DNA of 63,514 nucleotides, filler included, from Chthonomonadaceae bacterium (lineage in GTDB: Bacteria > Armatimonadota > Chthonomonadetes > Chthonomonadales > Chthonomonadaceae): the NCBI GenBank assembly GCA_035650735.1. It is 8 parts of 8 records of this genome, joined end to end, with 100 filler letters (N's around TTAATTAATTAA, not from the genome) between each part and the next. Parts side by side here need not be neighbours in the genome. Positions count along the whole stretch, not along the records: positions 54,585 to 59,764 come from DASRGZ010000012.1; 7 more parts are not named here. One strand, 5' to 3'. The notes below the pieces were generated by a model that was not told where the DNA came from, ran no database searches, and was given only the letters and a program-made list of their open reading frames with translations. Made by a program: the position numbers and the translations under genes. Shown here in pieces: positions 2,765-59,864 of the stretch; the stretch's first letter is position 1, and each line of letters starts with the position of its first letter.

Positions 2765-4205
2765 TGCTGCGAGGTAGATTACCTAACCCCCCGACCCCCA
2801 CTGCTAGGGTCGGCGCTCAACGGTTCGCGCCTCCGCCTAACGACCCTAAGAGGGAAGGGAGGGACCCGACTTCGTGCGCTTCTCCTGCACTTCCCCACTC
2901 TTTTTGCCGTACAAAGGCGAGAGGGCAGAGATGGCATTCAAAGCTCCGCACCTCCGTCCCAGAGGAAAAGGGTTTGAGGGATGAGGGGGCGAGCAAGGGA
3001 GCGTATCAACCTGGGCCACCCCCTTCCCTTCCAGGGAGGGGGGCCGGAGGGTTAGGTGCAACACCAGGGAAGGGGGCCGGGGGGTTAGGACTCCTTCTCC
3101 TGCTTTTGCTGCTCTGCTGCCGGGCGCAGGCGCGTGGATTGGAGCGGGTGCGCTTTGTGGTGGTGGATGCGGTCACGCGCCAGCCTGTCGCCGGGGCGCG
3201 CGTGACTATCGAGGATGGGGCCGGCGTCCGTCCGGTCTGCACCCTCATCGCCGGTTGGGAGCCATCAGGCAAAACGCCGATCTTTAATCTGCGGGCCTGG
3301 ACGGTGGATTACATGGCGGGCGGCGTCTCCCCAACCGTCATCGTCCTGCCGGTCGGGACCGGCGTAACGCTCCAGGGGCAGACGCAGCCGCCCGTCAAGG
3401 AGATCTATATCAAGGTGACGGCCACGCGCCTGATCCCCCAGCACGCCAACCCCATTGCGCCCGGAACCACGCTCAACCGCCAAGAGATCACCAGCAAGGC
3501 CGGCGTGGGCGGCAATATCAATCGCGTGATCGAGGGCACGACCGGCGTGGCCTCCGACTCCGCCGGCCAGCAGCACGTCCGGGGCGAGCACGCCGACATC
3601 TCCTACGTGGTGGACGGCGTGCCGCTGCCCGATACGCTTTCCGGGCGGCAGGGATCGGTCGTTGTGCCCGCCACCATCCAGCGGCTGGAGATCCTGACCG
3701 GGGGCTTTGCGCCGGAGTTCGGAGGGCAGACCGCTGCCATCCTCAACGTCACGACGCTCCCCGGCGTGCGCAAAGGTCGCAGCAACCTGGCCTTTCAGGG
3801 TGGCAGCTACGACACCACAAACGGCGACTTCACGGCACTGGGGCCTCTGGGTAAGTACGCCAACTACGTGATCGATCTTGCCGCCACACGCACGCGCAAC
3901 TGGCTGGAGCCGCCCCAGCCCGACGACCAGACGGCGCACAACGCCGGCTCCTCCTTAAGCTACTTCACCAAGCTGCACTATACGCCGGGCCGCCGCGACA
4001 TACTCAACCTGACCCTGAGCCGCAATCCCGATACCTTCCAGGTCGCCAATCGGACTGGACTGCCGGCCTCGTTCGAACAGGCGGGACAGGGCTTCGGCTT
4101 CCTGGGCCTGCGCAACGCCAACGGTGTTCGCCCGGATGTGACCTCGGAGAACGCCGACCTGCTCGGCGCGCAGACTATTCCGCTGCCCTCCCAGCAGGCG
4201 GCGGG
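2764..4205 (+). CDS. TonB-dependent receptor, N-terminal part (plug); truncated by contig end
   Basis: ATG overlaps the tonB stop (TGATG). Signal h-region L8CCRAQA. Plug motifs HVRGEHADISYVVDGVP and LEILTGGFAPEFGGQTAAILNVTT. Confidence 0.85.
2782..3089. repeat. CCTAACCCC...GGGGTTAGG palindromic repeat (family A), inside the TBDR reading frame
   Basis: Same termini and CCCCTTCCC/GGGAAGGGG arms as the copies at 7197 and 40670. Contains a family B element at 2800-2844. Confidence 0.85.
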
Positions 4206-4305
4206 NNNNNNNNNNNNNNNNNNNNNNNNNNNNNNNNNNNNNNNNNNNNTTAATTAATTAANNNNNNNNNNNNNNNNNNNNNNNNNNNNNNNNNNNNNNN
4301 NNNNN
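4206..4305. other. Artificial contig linker (first of seven)
   Basis: N-run, TTAATTAATTAA (stops in all frames), N-run. Identical at the six other positions given in the summary. Confidence 0.98.
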
Positions 4306-7196: not shown

Positions 7197-7596
7197 CCTA
7201 ACCCCCCGGCCCCCTTCCCTACTCGCTCATTCCTCGCTAGGGAAGGGGGGGACCCGACTTCTTTTCCCCCTTCTCCCTGCTAGGGAGAAGGGCCGGGGAT
7301 GAGGGGAGAACCTAGCTTCTTCTCTCCCCTCTCCTAGAATTGGGGATCGCCAGGCGGAGGCCCGAACCATTGCAGGGCCGACCCTGGCAGTAGGTTGGGG
7401 GTGGGGGCCGCGCCCCTCTCCCGCAGCGTGGATCGCCAGGCGGAGGGGTGTCGCAAGGCGGAGCCGGAGGCCGTAACTCCGGCGACCCTTGCAGTGGGCC
7501 GAACCATTGCAGGCCCGACCCTAGCAGTCCGTTGAGCGGCGTCCCTTGCCGTCCGTTGAGCCCCGACCCTGGCAGTAGGGGGATAGGGGGTGAGGG
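7197..7596. repeat. Family A modular palindromic repeat with nested family B elements (7346-7391, 7432-7576)
   Basis: Repeated CCCCT(T)CTCCC-N-GGGAGA(A)GGG-N-GGGGTGAGGG units, closely similar to 40670-41031. Confidence 0.9.
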
Positions 7597-15808: not shown

Positions 15809-16060
15809 TAAACAGTCCTAGAGAAAGGTTTTGTGTGGACCCTGCCTCACTTAGCCCTGCTTGCCTGCCTGCCTCTTGCTCACCCAACCTATCGACCTGG
15901 GATGCTGCCTTAAGTCCCACAGGCATCCAGAAAAACCCTGCGGTCTTTGCTAGACGCTCTNNNNNNNNNNNNNNNNNNNNNNNNNNNNNNNNNNNNNNNN
16001 NNNNTTAATTAATTAANNNNNNNNNNNNNNNNNNNNNNNNNNNNNNNNNNNNNNNNNNNN

Positions 16061-26246: not shown

Positions 26247-26451
26247 CAGCGGCAGGCTCAACCCTGCCGCTCGGGGGCGCAAAGCGCCCGTCACCCACCT
26301 ACGTGGGCGAAACTCTCTGCCTGCGTAGGCAGCAGGGCTGCCCCTAGAGAACGATGGTGACGCCCCTGGCGTTGTCAACGGGTATTCTGCCCGCGTCGGT
26401 GTCGCAGGGCGGAGGGCCGAATTATTGCAGGCCCGACCCTGGCAGTCAGCA
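26247..26451. repeat. Family C composite element (hairpin-ended), truncated by contig end
   Basis: Shares its left ~80 bp with 52189-52459. 26310-26450 matches the reverse complement of 59624-59764 with one mismatch. Contains a family B element at 26401-26446. Confidence 0.85.
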
Positions 26452-26551
26452 NNNNNNNNNNNNNNNNNNNNNNNNNNNNNNNNNNNNNNNNNNNNTTAAT
26501 TAATTAANNNNNNNNNNNNNNNNNNNNNNNNNNNNNNNNNNNNNNNNNNNN

Positions 26552-36335: not shown

Positions 36336-37598
36336 TCGATCTGAAAGTGGAAACATCCAAACCCTGACCGGCCTTGGCTTGCCAGTGTAAATCCGGGCGC
36401 GTCGGCCCCAGCAGATCCACTCCAAACTCTTTGTGGCTGGAGACCAACAGGTCGGCATCCAAGTAGCCGGTGTCCACAATATGGGTTTTGGGCAGCAGGT
36501 CTTTATCCTTGAGCGCCTGATGTACCTAAGGCGTTGCTTCGCCATCGGCTATCGGTGCGGCAGTCGTCGCGACATGAGTAATCAGCGGTGGTGTCTCGTC
36601 TTCGCAGGTCTCGGTCAGATGCACTTTGTAGCCAACCCAGCAGGTATTGCCTTTCTTGCACAGATGCGCGTCCGTATCGTAGAGCGAACTCAGAAAGCAG
36701 GTGGCGGGAGGGATGTTGTCCGCTTCCCGCCATTCTAATCCTTTCTGTGTCTGCTGATAATTCTGCACCCAGATCTGGCGCATTCCCTGAACCGCTGGCA
36801 ATTGGCGTAACGAGATAGGCGCATGGGGAGTATAGACCGCGTTCAAGAGCGCCAGGCCGTCCGCGCCGATGGTTTGTGCCAGTGCCTGACGCTCCTCCGG
36901 CTTGGCAGGCAAGCGCTCCGGTTCAAAACGGCGCACATAGCGTTTGGCCCATTCCGGTTGCAGACGAGTGCGTAGCCAATCGGGATCCGCAACGGCGAGC
37001 GCATCCAGCGTGGCACGCATCGTCTCCAGTACCAGTTCGTAGCGATTGATGGCCCGCACGGCTGCCAGCACATGGGTGGAGTCGGCGCGCTGTTTGCCGC
37101 CTGCCTTGAGTAATTTCTTCTCTCGACACCAGGTAAGCAAGGTGTCCAGTAGCAGATGTTCGGCATTCCCTTCCAGCAAGCGAGCACGGAACTCGCACAA
37201 CACCGAGGGATCGAAGCCAGGATCTTCCAACTCCAGGGAGAGCGCGTATTTCCAGTCGATACGACTGCGCACCGCTTCTGCGGCCTGCTGATCGGAGAGG
37301 CCTTCGGCGAACTGCATGATGGTCACCAGTGCCAGACGCCAGGGCGCTTCAGCAGGCTGTCCTCTGCATGGAAACAGGGGAGCGAAGATTTCATCCTGAA
37401 ACAGAATGCCCAGTTGATCGCGCAAGGTGAGGTAGGGATTGCCTTTGGGGAAGGCGGCTTTGGCCATGCGTACCGTCAACTCAGGAACCGGATCGACAGG
37501 TCTTTGTTGCAGGGACATAGAGTGCCTCCTCGAAAATCAAGAACGCGCTCCTGTTCTGCAGGACGGTTCAAGCTTCCTCCGAATTCGCCAGTGGTATC
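36335..37598 (-). mobile_element. IS1182-family element, truncated; transposase from 37518 with in-frame TAG at 36526-36528
   Basis: Motifs AAFPKGNPY, RIDWKYALSL, RADSTHV, WVGYKVHLTETC and VDTGY. Probable left end GATACCACTGGCGAATTC at 37598. The 3' part is deleted. Confidence 0.9.
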
Positions 37599-37725: not shown

Positions 37726-38185
37726 CAGGGTTATTCAATTCTCGGCGCTGTTGCGTTTTTGGCGTCCGCCAGGACGCTTGGCCGGAGTCGTAGAGCGCCG
37801 GAGGTTGAAAACCCCGATCCGTGCCGGGCACGGAAAGTACCCGGCTAGAGGGCGGCTGCGCCGCCGACCGTCCTCCCGGACGGAATAACCTGGCTTTCCT
37901 GTGCGTCCGCCAGGGCGCTTGGCCGTAGGCCCTGGAGACGGGGGTTGAAAACCCCCGGCGTGCCGGGGCGGTTACGCCGCCAACCGACTGCAAGGGATGG
38001 CACTTCGCACGCTCGCTTTGCCTTGCGACTGTGGATGGAACCACCTGGCTTGGCTGTGCGTCCGCTAGTCGCAAGGCCGAGCCGCGAACCGTTGAGCGGC
38101 GTCCCTTGCAGTCGCTTGGCCGTAGGCCCTGGAGACGGGTACTTTCCGTGCCCGGCGTCGAGTGCCGGGAAACGGAAGGACCCTG
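37726..38185. mobile_element. Expanded family D MITE: three tandem internal units, two carrying family B inserts
   Basis: Starts CAGGGTTATTC and ends GGAAACGGAAGGACCCTG as in 12197-12318. The GCGTCCGCCAGG(A/G)CGCTTGGCCG unit occurs three times. Confidence 0.8.
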
Positions 38186-38323: not shown

Positions 38324-38423
38324 NNNNNNNNNNNNNNNNNNNNNNNNNNNNNNNNNNNNNNNNNNNNTTAATTAATTAANNNNNNNNNNNNNNNNNNNNN
38401 NNNNNNNNNNNNNNNNNNNNNNN

Positions 38424-40669: not shown

Positions 40670-41031
40670 CCTAACCCCCCGGCCCCCTTCCCTTCTAGGG
40701 AAGGGAGTGACCCGGCTTCTCTTCCCCCTTCTCCCTTGCAGGGAGAAGGGCCGGGGAGGAGGGTAGAACTTGGCTTCCCCGTTCCCCCTCTCCCGCAGCG
40801 TGGATCGCAAGGCGGAGGGGTGTGGCAAGGCAGAGCCGTGTCGCCAGGTGTCGCAAGGCGGAGGCAAGGGCCGTAACCTTGCCGACCCTTGCAGTCCGTT
40901 GAGCGGCGTCCCTTGCAGTAGGGGGTTAGGGGGTGAGGGCGACCCTACCCCCTACACCCTACCCCCTACACCCTATCCCCTACACCCTATCCCCTACCCC
41001 CTACACCCTGCGCGAGGGGCCGGGGGTGAGG
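40670..41031. repeat. Family A repeat with multiply nested family B elements (40804-40919) and heptamer tract (40943-41009)
   Basis: Colinear with 7197-7596. Contains CCCTACA/CCCTATC tandem units. Confidence 0.9.
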
Positions 41032-44071: not shown

Positions 44072-44338
44072 CTCACCTCCGGTTAAGACCCCCACCCCTT
44101 CATCCCCTCCCCCAAGAACAGGGGAGGGGAGAGTCTGAGCTTCTCGGTTCCCCCTCTCCTAAAGCTAGGGGTCGCAAGGCGGAGGGGTGTGGCAAGGCAA
44201 AGCCGTGTCGCTAGGTGTCGCAAGGCGGAGGCAAGGGCCGTAACCTTGCCGACCCTGGCAGTGAGGCGAACCATGGCAGCCCCGACCCTTGCAGTCCATT
44301 GCAGGCCCGACCCGAGCAGTGGGGACAGGGGGTGAGGG
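44072..44338. repeat. Family A repeat with nested family B elements (44171-44320)
   Basis: CCCCTCTCCT arm interrupted by four left ends and three right ends of the 45-bp element. Confidence 0.9.
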
Positions 44339-46033: not shown

Positions 46034-46156
46034 NNNNNNNNNNNNNNNNNNNNNNNNNNNNNNNNNNNNNNNNNNNNTTAATTAATTAANNNNNNNNNNN
46101 NNNNNNNNNNNNNNNNNNNNNNNNNNNNNNNNNCGAAGAACCTGGGAGTAAGGCTG

Positions 46157-52188: not shown

Positions 52189-52459
52189 CCTAAAGCGGCA
52201 GGGTTCAGCCTGCCGCTCGGGGGCGCAAAGCGCCCGTCGCCCACCTACGTGGGCGAAACGGTCTGCCTGCACAGGCATCGCAAGGCGGAGGGGTGTGGCA
52301 AGGCAGAGCCGTGTCGCTAGGTGTCGCAAGGCGGAGGCAGGGGCCATAACCTTGCCGACCCTGGCAGTCAGCGGGCCTGGCTAGGCGGAGGTTTCGAACC
52401 GTTGAGGAACCGACCTTAGCAGAACCCCACAGCGGCAGGCTGAACCCTGCCGCTTTAGG
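52189..52459. repeat. Complete family C element: 29-bp perfect TIRs that are themselves hairpins; contains family B nests (52277-52368, 52377-52423)
   Basis: CCTAAAGCGGCAGGGTTCAGCCTGCCGCT ... AGCGGCAGGCTGAACCCTGCCGCTTTAGG, sitting inside family A ends. Confidence 0.88.
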
Positions 52460-54484: not shown

Positions 54485-54590
54485 NNNNNNNNNNNNNNNN
54501 NNNNNNNNNNNNNNNNNNNNNNNNNNNNTTAATTAATTAANNNNNNNNNNNNNNNNNNNNNNNNNNNNNNNNNNNNNNNNNNNNGGGTTT

Positions 54591-55280
54591 TTATTTGACG
54601 ACGGCAGGCTCCTCGGCCTCGGGGAGTTGCAGGGGATCCGGCTTTTCAGGCTTGAGGTGGTGCCAGAGCCAGAATCCGAACAGGGCCACAAGAGCGATCC
54701 CGATGACGGCATCCGCGCCGTGGAAATACTTTTTCAAGTCGTCGAGGTGGCTGGCAAACTGAACGCCGACATAGGCTAGCAGGTAACACCAGGGAACGGA
54801 GCCAAGGAAGGAGAGAGCCAGAAACGGCCAGAACGGCATCCTGGCAATGCCCGCCGGAAGCGAGATGAACGTCCGCACGACGGGCAGCAGACGCGCCAGG
54901 AAGATGGCCGCCGCTCCCCGCTTCTCAAACCACGCTTCGGATTTCTCCACGTCACGCCGCTTCAGCAGGATATACTTGCCGTATTTGAAGATGAACTCTC
55001 GGCCACCATAAGCGCCGACAAACCAGGCCAATGCCGAGCCGAGCGCGCAACCCAGTGCCCCCGACAGAGCAACCAGATGGAAGTTCAGCGGATCGCGCGG
55101 CGGCGTCAGCGTGGCCGCAATGCTGCCCAGGGTCAGCGCGCCCGCGAAAGGCATGATGACCTCGCTCGGCAGGGGAATGCAGGCGCTTTCTATCGCCATT
55201 AGCAGGATGATCCCGGCGTAGCCGCCGCTGCTGATGACGTTCTTGATCCAGTTGCCAACTATGGTTAAGAGATGTTCCAC
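54591..55280 (-). CDS. DedA-family membrane protein
   Basis: Motifs LMAIESACIPLPSEVIMPFAG and RLLPVVRTFISLPAG. GAGGT before GTG 55280. Confidence 0.92.
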   Translation of the reverse strand: MEHLLTIVGNWIKNVISSGGYAGIILLMAIESACIPLPSEVIMPFAGALTLGSIAATLTPPRDPLNFHLVALSGALGCALGSALAWFVGAYGGREFIFKYGKYILLKRRDVEKSEAWFEKRGAAAIFLARLLPVVRTFISLPAGIARMPFWPFLALSFLGSVPWCYLLAYVGVQFASHLDDLKKYFHGADAVIGIALVALFGFWLWHHLKPEKPDPLQLPEAEEPAVVK

Positions 55281-55317
55281 TACATTTACCTCGCAATCTT
55301 CCCTGTGCGGCCTCCCA

Positions 55318-55554
55318 CCTAACCTCCCGTCCCCACTGCTAGGGTCGGTGCTGCACACGCTCGCACCACTGCCAGAGTCGGCCCTACAATGGACTGCAAG
55401 GGTCGGCAGGGTTACGGCCCCTGCCTCCGCCTTGCCACAGCCCTCCGCCTTGCCACACCTAGCGACCCTACGAGGGAAGGCGGTGCCCCGGCTTCTCCTC
55501 TCCCCTCTCCTTGAGAAGGAGAGGGGACGGGGGCGCGGTCTTCCAGGGTGAGGG
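55318..55554. repeat. Family A repeat with a complete three-layer family B nest (55335-55466, minus orientation)
   Basis: Three right ends followed by three left ends in bracket order. Confidence 0.9.
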
Positions 55555-55561
55555 CGGCGCG

Positions 55562-56884
55562 CTACTTCTGGTGCGGCACGCCCGGCTCGTGACCCGCCAA
55601 TTCACCGACCGCTTCCCAGTCCGGCTCCGGGGCCAGCATGGCGGCGGGCGCCTCTTCGGGCGGCAGCGCCTGCTGCCGAACGCGCTCATAGACGGCCACC
55701 ACTTTCTGTGCCATTACCGGCGGCGTATAAAGCTGTGCGTTGTGAAGCCCATTGGCCCGCAGCGTCTCTCGAAGTTTCCTGTCCTGCAAAATCTGTACCA
55801 CGCGCGCCGCGAACGCCTCCTGTTCCTCCAGAGGGACGCGGAAGCCGTCTTCCCCGTCGCGTACCGTTTCCGGCGCTCCCCCGGCATCCACCACCACGCA
55901 GGGCAGGCCCGCTGCCCGCGCCTCCGCGATCACCAGCCCTTGCGTCTCCGAGGGCGAGGGGAAACAGAAGACATCGGCGGCGGCATAGAGCGAGTCCATC
56001 TGGCGGCGCGGCGTCGGCCCCAGGAAGAGCACGGCATCGCCTGGCAGGAGCGCCTCCGCCGCGCCCTGAAGCTCCTCGGCAGAGGGGCCGCCCCCGGCCA
56101 GGGCCAGTCGTGCGTTCGGCACGTGCGCGCGTATCCGCGCGAAGACCTCCAGCAGCCAATCCAGGTTCTTCTCCCGCGCGAGCCGACCGGCGTAGAGCAG
56201 GAGCGGCGTGTCCGGAGCGATGCCCAGGCGCTCCCGTGTACAGCGGCGTGCCTCTTCGCCGATCTGGTCGGGGGCCGGCAGGGGCACGCCCGTCGGGATG
56301 ACCGCGATGGGCCGCTCGACGCCCATCTCCCGCAGCGCCCGCGCCGCCACCTCCGACGGGCAGATGATCTCGGCGCAGCGGTTATAGTACCAGGGCAAGT
56401 AGTGTTCCAGGAGACTCTGGGTCACGGCGTCCGGCAGCAAGGGAAAATAGTGGCTGTACTGCGTGTAGAGCGTGTGAAACGTAGTCACCAGCGGCACGCC
56501 GCGACTGAGCGCCAGGTTGGCCCCCGTCAGCCCCAGCACGAACGGCGTATGCGTATGGACGATGTCCAGGCGCAGGCGGTTAAAGTAGGGCGCGAGCGCC
56601 AGGCGCGGCAGGAAGGGAAACGCCAGCGGATATTCCCGGTTGAAGACCGAGACAAAGGAAGGAAAGCGCAGCACGTTGGTTTCCGTCCCGCGTTGCTGCT
56701 GGTGGGCCGGCGCGAACACTACGACGTGGTGGCGCAGGGCGCGCAGCTCCGCCATCAGCGTCAGAACGGAGGTGGTGACGCCGTTTTGTACTGGATGGAA
56801 GCTCTCGGAAAAGATTCCAATGCGCAGTGTGCCCGCATGTCGAGGCTCGGCGTTGGTCGCGTGGGCAGGAGGCAGATGGGTCAA
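55562..56884 (-). CDS. GT4 glycosyltransferase (diacylglycerol glucosyltransferase-like)
   Basis: Motifs FSESFHPVQNGV, HTHTPF, FHTLY, GRLAREKN and SETQGLVIAEA. Confidence 0.9.
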   Translation of the reverse strand: MTHLPPAHATNAEPRHAGTLRIGIFSESFHPVQNGVTTSVLTLMAELRALRHHVVVFAPAHQQQRGTETNVLRFPSFVSVFNREYPLAFPFLPRLALAPYFNRLRLDIVHTHTPFVLGLTGANLALSRGVPLVTTFHTLYTQYSHYFPLLPDAVTQSLLEHYLPWYYNRCAEIICPSEVAARALREMGVERPIAVIPTGVPLPAPDQIGEEARRCTRERLGIAPDTPLLLYAGRLAREKNLDWLLEVFARIRAHVPNARLALAGGGPSAEELQGAAEALLPGDAVLFLGPTPRRQMDSLYAAADVFCFPSPSETQGLVIAEARAAGLPCVVVDAGGAPETVRDGEDGFRVPLEEQEAFAARVVQILQDRKLRETLRANGLHNAQLYTPPVMAQKVVAVYERVRQQALPPEEAPAAMLAPEPDWEAVGELAGHEPGVPHQK

Positions 56885-59543: not shown

Positions 59544-59764
59544 CGGTAGGCTGAACCCTGCCGCTGTGGGGCTCTGCTAGGGTCGGTTCCTCAACGGTTG
59601 GGAGCCTCCGCCTAGCCAGGCCCGCTGACTGCCAGGGTCGGGCCTGCAATAATTCGGCCCTCCGCCTTGCGACACCGACGCGGGCAGAATACCCGTTGAC
59701 AACGCCAGGGGCGTCACCATCGTTCTCTAGGGGCAGCCCTGCTGCCTACGCAGGCAGAGAGTTT
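59544..59764. repeat. Family C element (reverse orientation), truncated by contig end; family B at 59573-59619 and 59628-59673
   Basis: Matches the reverse complement of 52369-52453 and of 26310-26450. Confidence 0.85.
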
Positions 59765-59864
59765 NNNNNNNNNNNNNNNNNNNNNNNNNNNNNNNNNNNN
59801 NNNNNNNNTTAATTAATTAANNNNNNNNNNNNNNNNNNNNNNNNNNNNNNNNNNNNNNNNNNNN

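Follow-up and report, generated by a model that had tools for sequence, protein, structure and literature searches.

A 46-nucleotide hairpin repeat that enters other repeats and itself by three-base replacement in a draft genome probably from the Armatimonadota

What kind of DNA places three copies of one short unit inside one another, as at positions 55335-55466 of the stretch analysed here? That stretch, the window, is 63.5 kb long and consists of contigs C2, C3, C4, C5, C6, C7, C12 and C26 of one draft genome (G000; 224 contigs, 6.52 Mb, 63% G+C, 97.6% complete), with runs of N between them. The source, a soil or mine bacterium, probably belongs to the Armatimonadota: the DprA encoded in the window has its best matches, at 50-52% identity, in metagenome-assembled genomes labelled Chthonomonadales or Armatimonadota. 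Because the joins (paired N runs with a 12-base linker, at 4206-4305, 15961-16060, 26452-26551, 38324-38423, 46034-46133, 54485-54584 and 59765-59864) lie between separate contigs, adjoining parts of the window need not be neighbours in the genome. The nest itself lies wholly within the single contig C12, between two minus-strand genes; the stop codon of one, for a GT4 glycosyltransferase, borders it on one side and the start codon of the other, which encodes a VTT domain, on the other side. The repeated unit, here called E, is 45-46 nt long and, in the orientation of the copy at 55335, is made up of a left (L) arm ACTGCNAGGGTCG, an inner hairpin (H) of 18-19 nt and a right (R) arm CTCCGCCTNGCGAC; in the unit alignment its termini read ACT... 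and ...GAC.

The window contains 19 matches to the L arm ACTGCNAGGGTCG and 18 to the R arm CTCCGCCTNGCGA at no more than one mismatch, where 0.48 and 1.11 would be expected, and they lie at the sites given in a preliminary description made from the sequence, so that the unit and its coordinates stand as first claimed. A covariance model (88 distinct units) recovered 10 strong complete units in the window, scoring 53-69 bits, as well as variants at 59573, 52377 and 37987. Across the genome there are 595 exact L arms and 493 exact R arms (931 and 908, respectively, at one mismatch or fewer), 219 exact L-H-R units, and 482 arrays in which both kinds of arm are represented; the arrays together hold 1,708 arms and occupy 0.63% of the genome. 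Since the search patterns preset the arms, their invariance in the 88-unit alignment arises by construction, and arm conservation is better gauged by the 595 exact copies among the 931 L arms within one mismatch. The inner hairpins are almost confined to the space between L and R arms.

How E enters DNA can be read from sites that lack it. The joined flanks of 87 simple units, those lying outside other E copies, were searched against the genome, and 51 of them had paralogues spanning the junction; strict anchoring left 43 filled sites and 148 comparisons. The empty copy was exactly three bases longer than the joined flanks in 120 of the 148 (TTC, TCC, CTC, CCC and others), and the filled and empty paralogues span at least 10 unrelated host repeat types. 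The proposal that E inserts as a discrete unit is thus borne out: filled and empty paralogues differ by the element plus a constant three-base replacement. These comparisons show that E enters DNA as a discrete, oriented unit that replaces three bases, in most cases three pyrimidines of which the last is C. The triplets lost from the individual host repeats are as follows.

Host b: TTC
Hosts a and a': CTC (count unsure, owing to variable-length C runs in host a)
Hosts k and d: TCC
Host e: CCC
Host c: CCT
Two further hosts: GCG

Both states occur in each host family counted, with empty and filled copies numbering 75 and 49, 50 and 11, 8 and 17, and 106 and 25. The first pair of counts is that of host b, whose empty paralogues read ...CCTAACCCCCCGGCCCCC TTC CCTACGAGGGAAGGG...; since this TTC is part of a 9-bp stem, in which it is paired with GAA, the empty form is the earlier one and not a scar. 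In 23 of 36 clear cases E ends in the same base as the triplet that it replaced, so the minimal description could be that 2 bases give way to 45; this version suits neither host a nor the TTC site with which hairpin C (one of the inner hairpin types) ends. Most copies end in C: the 3' ends read GAC (463), CAC (118) or GAT (210). The base 5' of E is C in 492 cases, G in 444, T in 131 and A in 24, and the left flank holds no conserved word. A further change accompanies insertion, as the G that follows the triplet in empty sites reads A in filled ones. Among tabulated 4-nt spacers between two R arms, 158 of 163 start with A, and the base after a GAC tail is A in 322 cases, C in 92, T in 41 and G in 8; three hosts keep the G after the triplet, and there the E tail is GAG. 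Genome-wide avoidance of GCGACG was considered as a cause of the missing G and rejected (observed/expected 0.98), and since that word is not avoided the change from G to A belongs to the element.

Whether E ends in C, T or G also depends on the host, with GAT in host a, GAC in host b and GAG where GCG was replaced. This is what would be seen if E were not mobile itself and were instead a module of larger repeats that spread whole, with gene conversion shuffling arms and hairpins; composites that spread as units, and unequal numbers of L and R arms as a product of secondary recombination, also favour this explanation. It is nonetheless decidedly unlikely, as the same unit occurs in at least 10 unrelated host families, each with many empty copies, E occupies defined sites within itself, one host type carries units of all hairpin types, and 18 of 454 arrays lie in non-repeated DNA.

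The same replacement, applied to E as target, gives the nest at 55335-55466. In this parse the outermost copy (E1) stands in place of the TTC of host b, the second (E2) has displaced TCC(G) from the E1 R arm, and the innermost (E3) has displaced TTC(G) from hairpin B of E2. The three copies said to be bracketed here are indeed so arranged, with E3 intact inside the inner hairpin of E2 and E2 inside the R arm of E1. The features are listed in order.

55309-55334, plus strand: left part of host repeat b, CCTAACCTCCCGTCCCC; E1 stands in place of the TTC of empty copies
55335-55347, plus strand: L arm of E1, ACTGCTAGGGTCG, an exact match
55348-55366, plus strand: inner hairpin of E1, type C, GTGC-TGCACACGCTC-GCAC, as read from the sequence
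55367, plus strand: first base of the R arm of E1, C; the TCC(G) that follows is replaced by E2 plus A
55368-55380, plus strand: L arm of E2, ACTGCCAGAGTCG, with 1 mismatch
55381-55392, plus strand: 5' part of the type B hairpin of E2, GCCCTACAATGG; the TTC(G) of intact units is replaced by E3 plus A
55393-55438, plus strand: E3, intact, with L arm, hairpin A (GCAGGG-TTACGGC-CCCTGC) and R arm CTCCGCCTTGCCAC; 61.3 bits
55439-55442, plus strand: 3' remnant of hairpin B of E2, AGCC; intact units end in a GGCC type, of which the first G reads A
55443-55456, plus strand: R arm of E2, CTCCGCCTTGCCAC, with 1 mismatch
55457-55466, plus strand: remainder of the R arm of E1, ACCTAGCGAC; its variable-position A pairs with T of the E1 L arm
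55467-55500, plus strand: right part of host repeat b, CCTACGAGGGAAGG..., as read from the sequence

The junctions of this nest recur across the genome: C[E]ACCTNGCGA, as at 55367, occurs 156 times, and spacers of 12 nt between two L arms, like that at 55381-55392, occur 142 times. Type C hairpins are found only between L and R arms. E3 is predicted to fold as a two-tier hairpin (-12.5 kcal/mol, z -2.3). Four self-targets are defined by the lengths of the L-L and R-R spacers, with the number of spacers in brackets.

TTC on the 3' side of hairpin B: L-L spacer 11-12 nt (187), R-R spacer 4 nt (166)
TCC at the start of the R arm: L-L spacer 19-20 nt (141), R-R spacer 14 nt (77)
TTC at the end of hairpin C: L-L spacer 16 nt (42), R-R spacer 0 nt (41)
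CTC in the middle of hairpin C: L-L spacer 8 nt (25), R-R spacer 8 nt (34)

The three-base replacement rule explains every nest. Hairpin B is intact in 141 cases and interrupted in 119, while the R arm is intact in 691 and interrupted in 156. Arms are ordered LR in 180 arrays, LLRR in 81 and LLLRRR in 37, with LLR in 57, LLLRR in 32 and LRLR in only 5. The unbalanced arrays may have arisen by deletion, because nesting creates direct repeats between which DNA can be lost. Balance is thus not general among the nests: that at 7432-7576 has four L-type arms and two R arms.

Repeats of this kind invite the suspicion that the nests are assembly artefacts, and three circumstances lend it some colour: E arms stand at 63 of the 448 contig ends, a composite nest (described below) breaks the assembly, and no single k=31 contig bridges 55417-55503. 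Public sequencing runs were examined as k=31 contigs only. In three of the four runs (X2, X3 and X6) the k-mer depth of E was ~1900-2200, compared with ~12 for its flanks. Contigs from three runs of three studies agreed with the window at every base, over 54600-55416 in two of the runs and over 54600-55374 in the other, which confirms the left half of the nest, although two of these three runs may be the source of the genome itself. Given this match, the one junction rule that hundreds of nests obey, and a like nest in a different organism (locus L062), the artefact explanation deserves next to no credence. Joints in the public runs near 59570-59620 show 6-8 differing letters, and these originate from paralogous host repeats. 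The elements explain why the genome assembled into 224 contigs.

Outside itself, E is found in a restricted set of places. A crude gene call covering 81.6% of the genome put 455 of the 482 arrays between genes; the 27 nominally genic arrays were at the ends of open reading frames (ORFs) or in doubtful ORFs and were therefore taken as intergenic. At least one flank was repeated five or more times in 436 of 454 arrays (96%) but in only 84 of 400 random intergenic points (21%), with 18 of the 454 arrays in non-repeated DNA. It had been claimed that copies sit inside other repeats or inside themselves, and that E is effectively a parasite of other repeats; both statements agree with these proportions, and the hosts include repetitive extragenic palindromic (REP) families that flank two RAYT-like genes. 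These two host families are the REP-like repeats beside the two RAYT-like Y1 genes of this genome, and E replaces the TCC between their two hairpins. The orientation of E relative to its host repeat is fixed, on the pyrimidine-rich strand. The data show that the targets of E lie almost only in other hairpin repeats and at defined sites in E, with nests as the result. At least five other C-rich/G-rich hairpin families, of tens to more than 100 copies each, were also seen to host E (CCCTCACCCCC...GGGGAGGGG; CCTAACCCCCCGGCCCCCTTCCCTACGAGGGAAGGG; CTGCCCACCTACGTGGGCAG), and window examples of C-rich/G-rich host repeats lie at 55467-55535, 7300-7345, 40700-40803 and 44100-44170.

An intergenic location (455 of 482 arrays) is also what would be expected of a functional RNA or DNA signal kept by selection, such as a terminator, an mRNA stabiliser or a protein-binding site; the stable hairpin fold of the unit and the larger number of arrays in convergent spacers (88) than in divergent ones (50) agree with that. 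Such a role is extremely improbable, since orientation relative to genes shows no preference (116 sense and 137 antisense in co-directional spacers), a nested copy destroys the hairpin or arm of the unit that it enters, the element is near-absent from relatives, and Rfam offers no match even at an E-value of 1 or less inside 55335-55466.

Single E units are predicted to fold as two-tier hairpins, in which a 6-bp outer stem with one free position is followed by an asymmetric internal loop (GTCG / CTCCG) and then by the exchangeable distal hairpin. The preliminary description had stated that the inner stems vary in sequence and keep their pairing, and the 88 distinct units agree: inner-helix pairs 14-32, 15-31, 16-30 and 17-29 are paired in 82, 85, 81 and 85 of them, with 4-5 standard pair types at each. 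In the inner helix 167 cells were changed on both sides, compared with 52.5 in shuffles; the covariation score was 0.352 against 0.073 when shuffled, with none of 500 shuffles equal or above, although these compensations are not independent events because the copies of E are related by descent. Shifting the partner by one column lowered inner pairing from 89% to 33-60%, and all four G/C combinations occur in the type B stem. Covariation had been claimed for the outer stem as well, and this part did not survive. The outer stem has a single variable pair, which forms a standard pair in just 40 of the 88 distinct units and in 83 of 242 simple units genome-wide; its commonest state is C opposite T (80), and only T:A is enriched (33 against 12.9 expected). 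We read this position as a free one. The inner-stem data show that the distal hairpin is required and that its sequence is not. From the compensated inner stems, and from arms that stay constant across organisms around swapped hairpins, we infer that E is probably recognized as a folded single strand.

Nests with an outer L arm at one end and an outer R arm at the other also spread as whole units and can carry foreign cargo, as a composite nest of ~190 nt shows. It is present in 14 copies with differing flanks and host types (contigs C40, C62, C63, C105, C126, C131, C147, C155, C171, C187, C194, C195 and C206), and between its two E-like parts it holds a 29-nt spacer, ATCAACATCAAGG..., unlike anything else in E. 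Contig ends cut 12 of the 14 copies, which are therefore too alike for the assembler. A contig assigned to another genus (locus L004, G019:C128) also carries the composite, with 100% identity over 141 nt, and the rest of that contig has no match in the source genome; either horizontal spread or mis-binning could account for this. That whole nests spread, that three target bases are replaced and that the self-target sites are defined are all points absent from the preliminary description.

Beyond the source genome E is rare. The exact unit was found in 2 of 40 relatives, one copy each, one being a genome of the same genus and the other of another genus, and exact L arms numbered 4 in G001, 5 in G010, 2 in G019, 0 in G016 and 0 in G008. 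A looser pattern occurred 278 times in the source genome and 0 times in 400 other sampled genomes of the phylum. A scan of metagenome contigs gave at least 127 stretches, of which 80 loci were examined. Most of these were 100% identical to the source genome and probably derive from its source, and 11 came from other organisms. In the 11 foreign loci the two arms are the same as in the source genome, and the inner hairpins are different: one, with a 7-bp stem and an ACGA loop, exists in four versions whose differences are fully compensated, among them that in the copy of G001 (locus L006), and others read ATGC...GCAT or have GTTC...GAAC replacing GAAC...GTTC. The foreign locus L062 is itself a nest.

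The unit had not been recognized as a described family, and this holds: Rfam gave 0 matches at the gathering score in the whole window and none at an E-value of 1 or less inside 55335-55466 (55250-55600 searched), and the REP tag classes do not fit. Full-text literature searching gave no description of E, of Armatimonadota repeats, or of bacterial hairpin repeats with target-site deletion. A HIP1-type cyanobacterial signature is absent. As a separate observation, the genome strongly avoids CGATCG (544 occurrences against ~6090 expected, ratio 0.09), and GCGATCGC occurs only 37 times; the avoidance of CGATCG suggests a PvuI-like restriction system, present or past.

Taken as a whole, this evidence makes it reasonably probable that E is a non-autonomous hairpin DNA element, active now or recently and moved in trans. 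The non-autonomy proposed from the start is supported in that only two L...R pairs lie 200-6000 nt apart in the genome, both of them chance or degenerate arms around ordinary genes, and no gene enclosed by an L...R pair was found there. In the proposed mechanism, a trans-acting enzyme would recognize the arms together with a distal hairpin, whatever its sequence, probably while the DNA is single-stranded and folded, cut both element boundaries and both sides of the target triplet, and then exchange the pieces. It is a bolder suggestion, and one that may well prove wrong, that E represents an undescribed kind of bacterial DNA movement, a hairpin-specific cut-and-swap with target-site replacement in place of duplication or clean insertion. 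On that view the enzyme would need to read no more than two short arms and any hairpin, so that the element could take cargo along and enter copies of itself.

By analogy, the best available candidate type for the enzyme is an HUH/Y1 (RAYT-like) single-strand endonuclease, an assignment that is possible but tentative, with no gene linked to E. The genome has three Y1_Tnp matches. The RAYT-like Y1 genes (G000:C166:80029-80526, minus strand, and G000:C166:12640-12915, plus strand, neither in the window) are each flanked on both sides by a REP-like hairpin family of their own, with 31-108 BLAST matches per repeat block. In PMC8266576, TnpA-REP of Escherichia coli is described as cutting single-stranded REP DNA 5' or 3' of the hairpin and joining it to a 3'-OH, which is necessarily that of C. 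This may be the nearest chemistry on record, most copies of E ending in C, as a resemblance and not a link.

Several results weigh against E being moved in this way. The genome holds no enzyme gene linked to E. A link to the RAYT-like genes was considered and rejected, as no E arm lies within ~2 kb of any Y1_Tnp match and the flanks of these matches belong to other repeat families. One candidate protein (Y1_a) reads DHVP where HUH is expected, and its homologues occur in 24 of 41 genomes (the source genome and 40 relatives), including the E-free G016 and G022; another (Y1_b) covers only profile positions 39-121, without the first third of the domain. Y1 transposition of the IS200/IS605 type leaves its target intact and is not known to replace three bases, and the left flank of E has no conserved tetranucleotide. 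Bias toward one replication strand was not seen, in what is a weak test, since GC skew does not track gene orientation in this genome. All of the empty sites are paralogues, none being an orthologous pre-insertion site. No orthologous empty site was obtained from the same-genus genome G001, where the flanking genes align at 78-80% and the spacer cannot be aligned, or from a metagenome relative, whose intergenic spacer is likewise unalignable; spacer turnover is too fast for either comparison. No empty or presence-absence variant of the 55335 locus was seen in the contigs of the four public runs. Finally, because the last base of E tracks the host type, some host-plus-E composites may have spread jointly. 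As the genome is a draft, a multi-copy enzyme gene could be absent from the assembly.

Two other routes of movement bear on the same observations. The constant loss of three target bases would suit double-strand movement, in which an unknown nuclease or recombinase makes a break with a 3-base stagger and the overhang is lost, giving a target-site deletion; that no strand bias is detectable and that no HUH gene is tied to E would both be natural then. We know of no bacterial DDE or serine enzyme with a fixed small target deletion, however, no transposase gene lies between L and R arms, and the need for a distal hairpin of any sequence is easier to understand on folded single strands, so this route appears unlikely. 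Copying of E through RNA by a reverse transcriptase, with target-primed insertion, is very improbable. The genome, which is 97.6% complete, has no RVT_1 match, and E shows no orientation bias relative to genes (116 sense, 137 antisense). Target-primed insertion can delete a few target bases, so the fixed small deletion would fit, and in its favour the A found in place of G directly 3' of the element could have been added without a template and the compensated stems would fit an RNA template. The IS110 DEDD transposase domain likewise had no match in the genome. The preferred reading continues to be a hairpin element moved in trans.

Among described systems, those closest to E in spirit are the small dispersed repeats (SDRs) of cyanobacteria. 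SDR4-6 of Nostoc and other cyanobacteria are reportedly non-coding, 21-27 nt long and inserted in other repeats and in each other; some are said to be hairpins with compensated changes, and no mobilizing enzyme is reported for them. E is longer (46 nt against 21-27 nt) and belongs to another phylum, and the SDRs are not known to have fixed arms around an exchangeable hairpin or a three-base replacement. PMC3116915 cites Elhai et al. 2008 for such repeats in cyanobacteria.

REP/REPIN-RAYT systems resemble E in being short, high-copy, extragenic hairpins thought to be mobile in trans on single-stranded DNA, in which structure is needed, sequence co-varies and expansion is lineage-specific. The genome has two REP-RAYT sets, and since E uses REPINs as targets it behaves as a REPIN parasite. 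E differs from these systems in having neither a GTAG nor a CGTC tag (as defined in PMC3733652), in being a 46-nt two-tier hairpin and not a single 20-40 nt stem-loop, in lying beside no Y1 gene and in replacing three target bases; in place of inverted dimers it forms same-strand L^mR^n nests. The CGTC REPs (Di Nocera et al. 2013, PMC3733652) share with E a hairpin, short unpaired ends and the lack of a dedicated transposase, and the same source reports some REP families as regularly inserted within other palindromes. However, the 8-9 bp stems starting with A/T pairs, the 4-5 nt loops and the CCA tail given there for CGTC REPs are all missing from E, whose other strand starts with TGTCGC, GGTCGC or GATCGC, CGTCGC being the rarest (G after GAC in 8 of 463).

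IS200/IS605 elements and their miniatures are like E in hairpin-dependent recognition, the lack of target duplication and orientation-specific insertion. Their insertion point lies 3' of a fixed tetra- or pentanucleotide, which is left intact (as generally understood, and in PMC8266576), and they have two different subterminal hairpins, whereas E has one composite hairpin and no conserved left flank and removes three bases. A classical (DDE) miniature inverted-repeat transposable element is set apart from E by the lack of target duplication and by empty sites 3 bases longer than the joined flanks. Integron attC sites, which act as folded single strands, are formally like E in their layout: two paired boxes are separated by an unpaired central spacer, and the terminal structure beyond them varies. 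The attC core-site consensus is RYYYAAC ... GTTRRRY; the arms of E (ACTGCNAGGGTCG / CTCCGCCTNGCGAC) contain no such core sites, and its copies are dispersed and not arranged in cassette arrays.

How short bacterial repeats multiply is a long-standing open question, and to our knowledge the RAYT link of REPs still has no in vivo transposition mechanism. E makes the question testable, as its substrate is only 46 nt, its arms are defined and its inner hairpin is naturally exchangeable. It also has a sharp junction signature (three bases replaced, A for G), defined self-targets and a natural composite with cargo; with so small a substrate, these features make an oligonucleotide assay and an enzyme search feasible. 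A hairpin-guided cut-and-swap enzyme with small sequence needs would, if real, be of potential interest as a tool.

The other copies of E in the window are the following.

2800-2844, plus strand: single unit in host repeat b, its hairpin B 18 nt long; 59.4 bits
7346-7391, minus strand: single unit with hairpin B and outer pair C:G, in host repeat a; 69.4 bits
7432-7576, minus strand: unbalanced nest with four L-type and two R arms; innermost unit at 7450-7495 (covariance model)
26401-26446, minus strand: single unit at a contig end, next to an N run; 55.4 bits
37987-38029, plus strand: divergent variant unit, a weak match of 23 bits
38068-38112, minus strand: variant unit (L arm ...GGGACG) in the REP family flanking Y1_a, with TCC in empty copies; 53.1 bits
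40804-40919, minus strand: nest with surplus truncated R arms; inner unit at 40850-40895 (covariance model)
44171-44320, minus strand: nest upstream of dprA; inner unit at 44217-44262 (covariance model)
52277-52368, minus strand: unit at 52323-52368, then a run of truncated and complete R arms (covariance model)
52377-52423, minus strand: variant unit, TCTGCTAAGGTCG ... CTCCGCCTAGCCAG; 28.3 bits
59573-59619, plus strand: variant unit, sharing the sub-type of that at 52377; 38 bits
59628-59673, plus strand: single unit with hairpin B, GGCC-TGCAATAATTC-GGCC, with CCC in empty host copies; 64.5 bits

An L-arm sub-family, ...AAGGGACG, is seen at 38068-38112, 7529-7563 and 40896-40919, usually with the hairpin CCGCTCAACGG...; its R arm is CTCGGCC or CTTTGCC, and it is located in the REP family beside Y1_a. 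An ORF with a DUF772 transposase domain (IS5-like) lies at 36526-37518 on the minus strand, ~470 nt from the variant units at 37987-38112, with no established relation to E.

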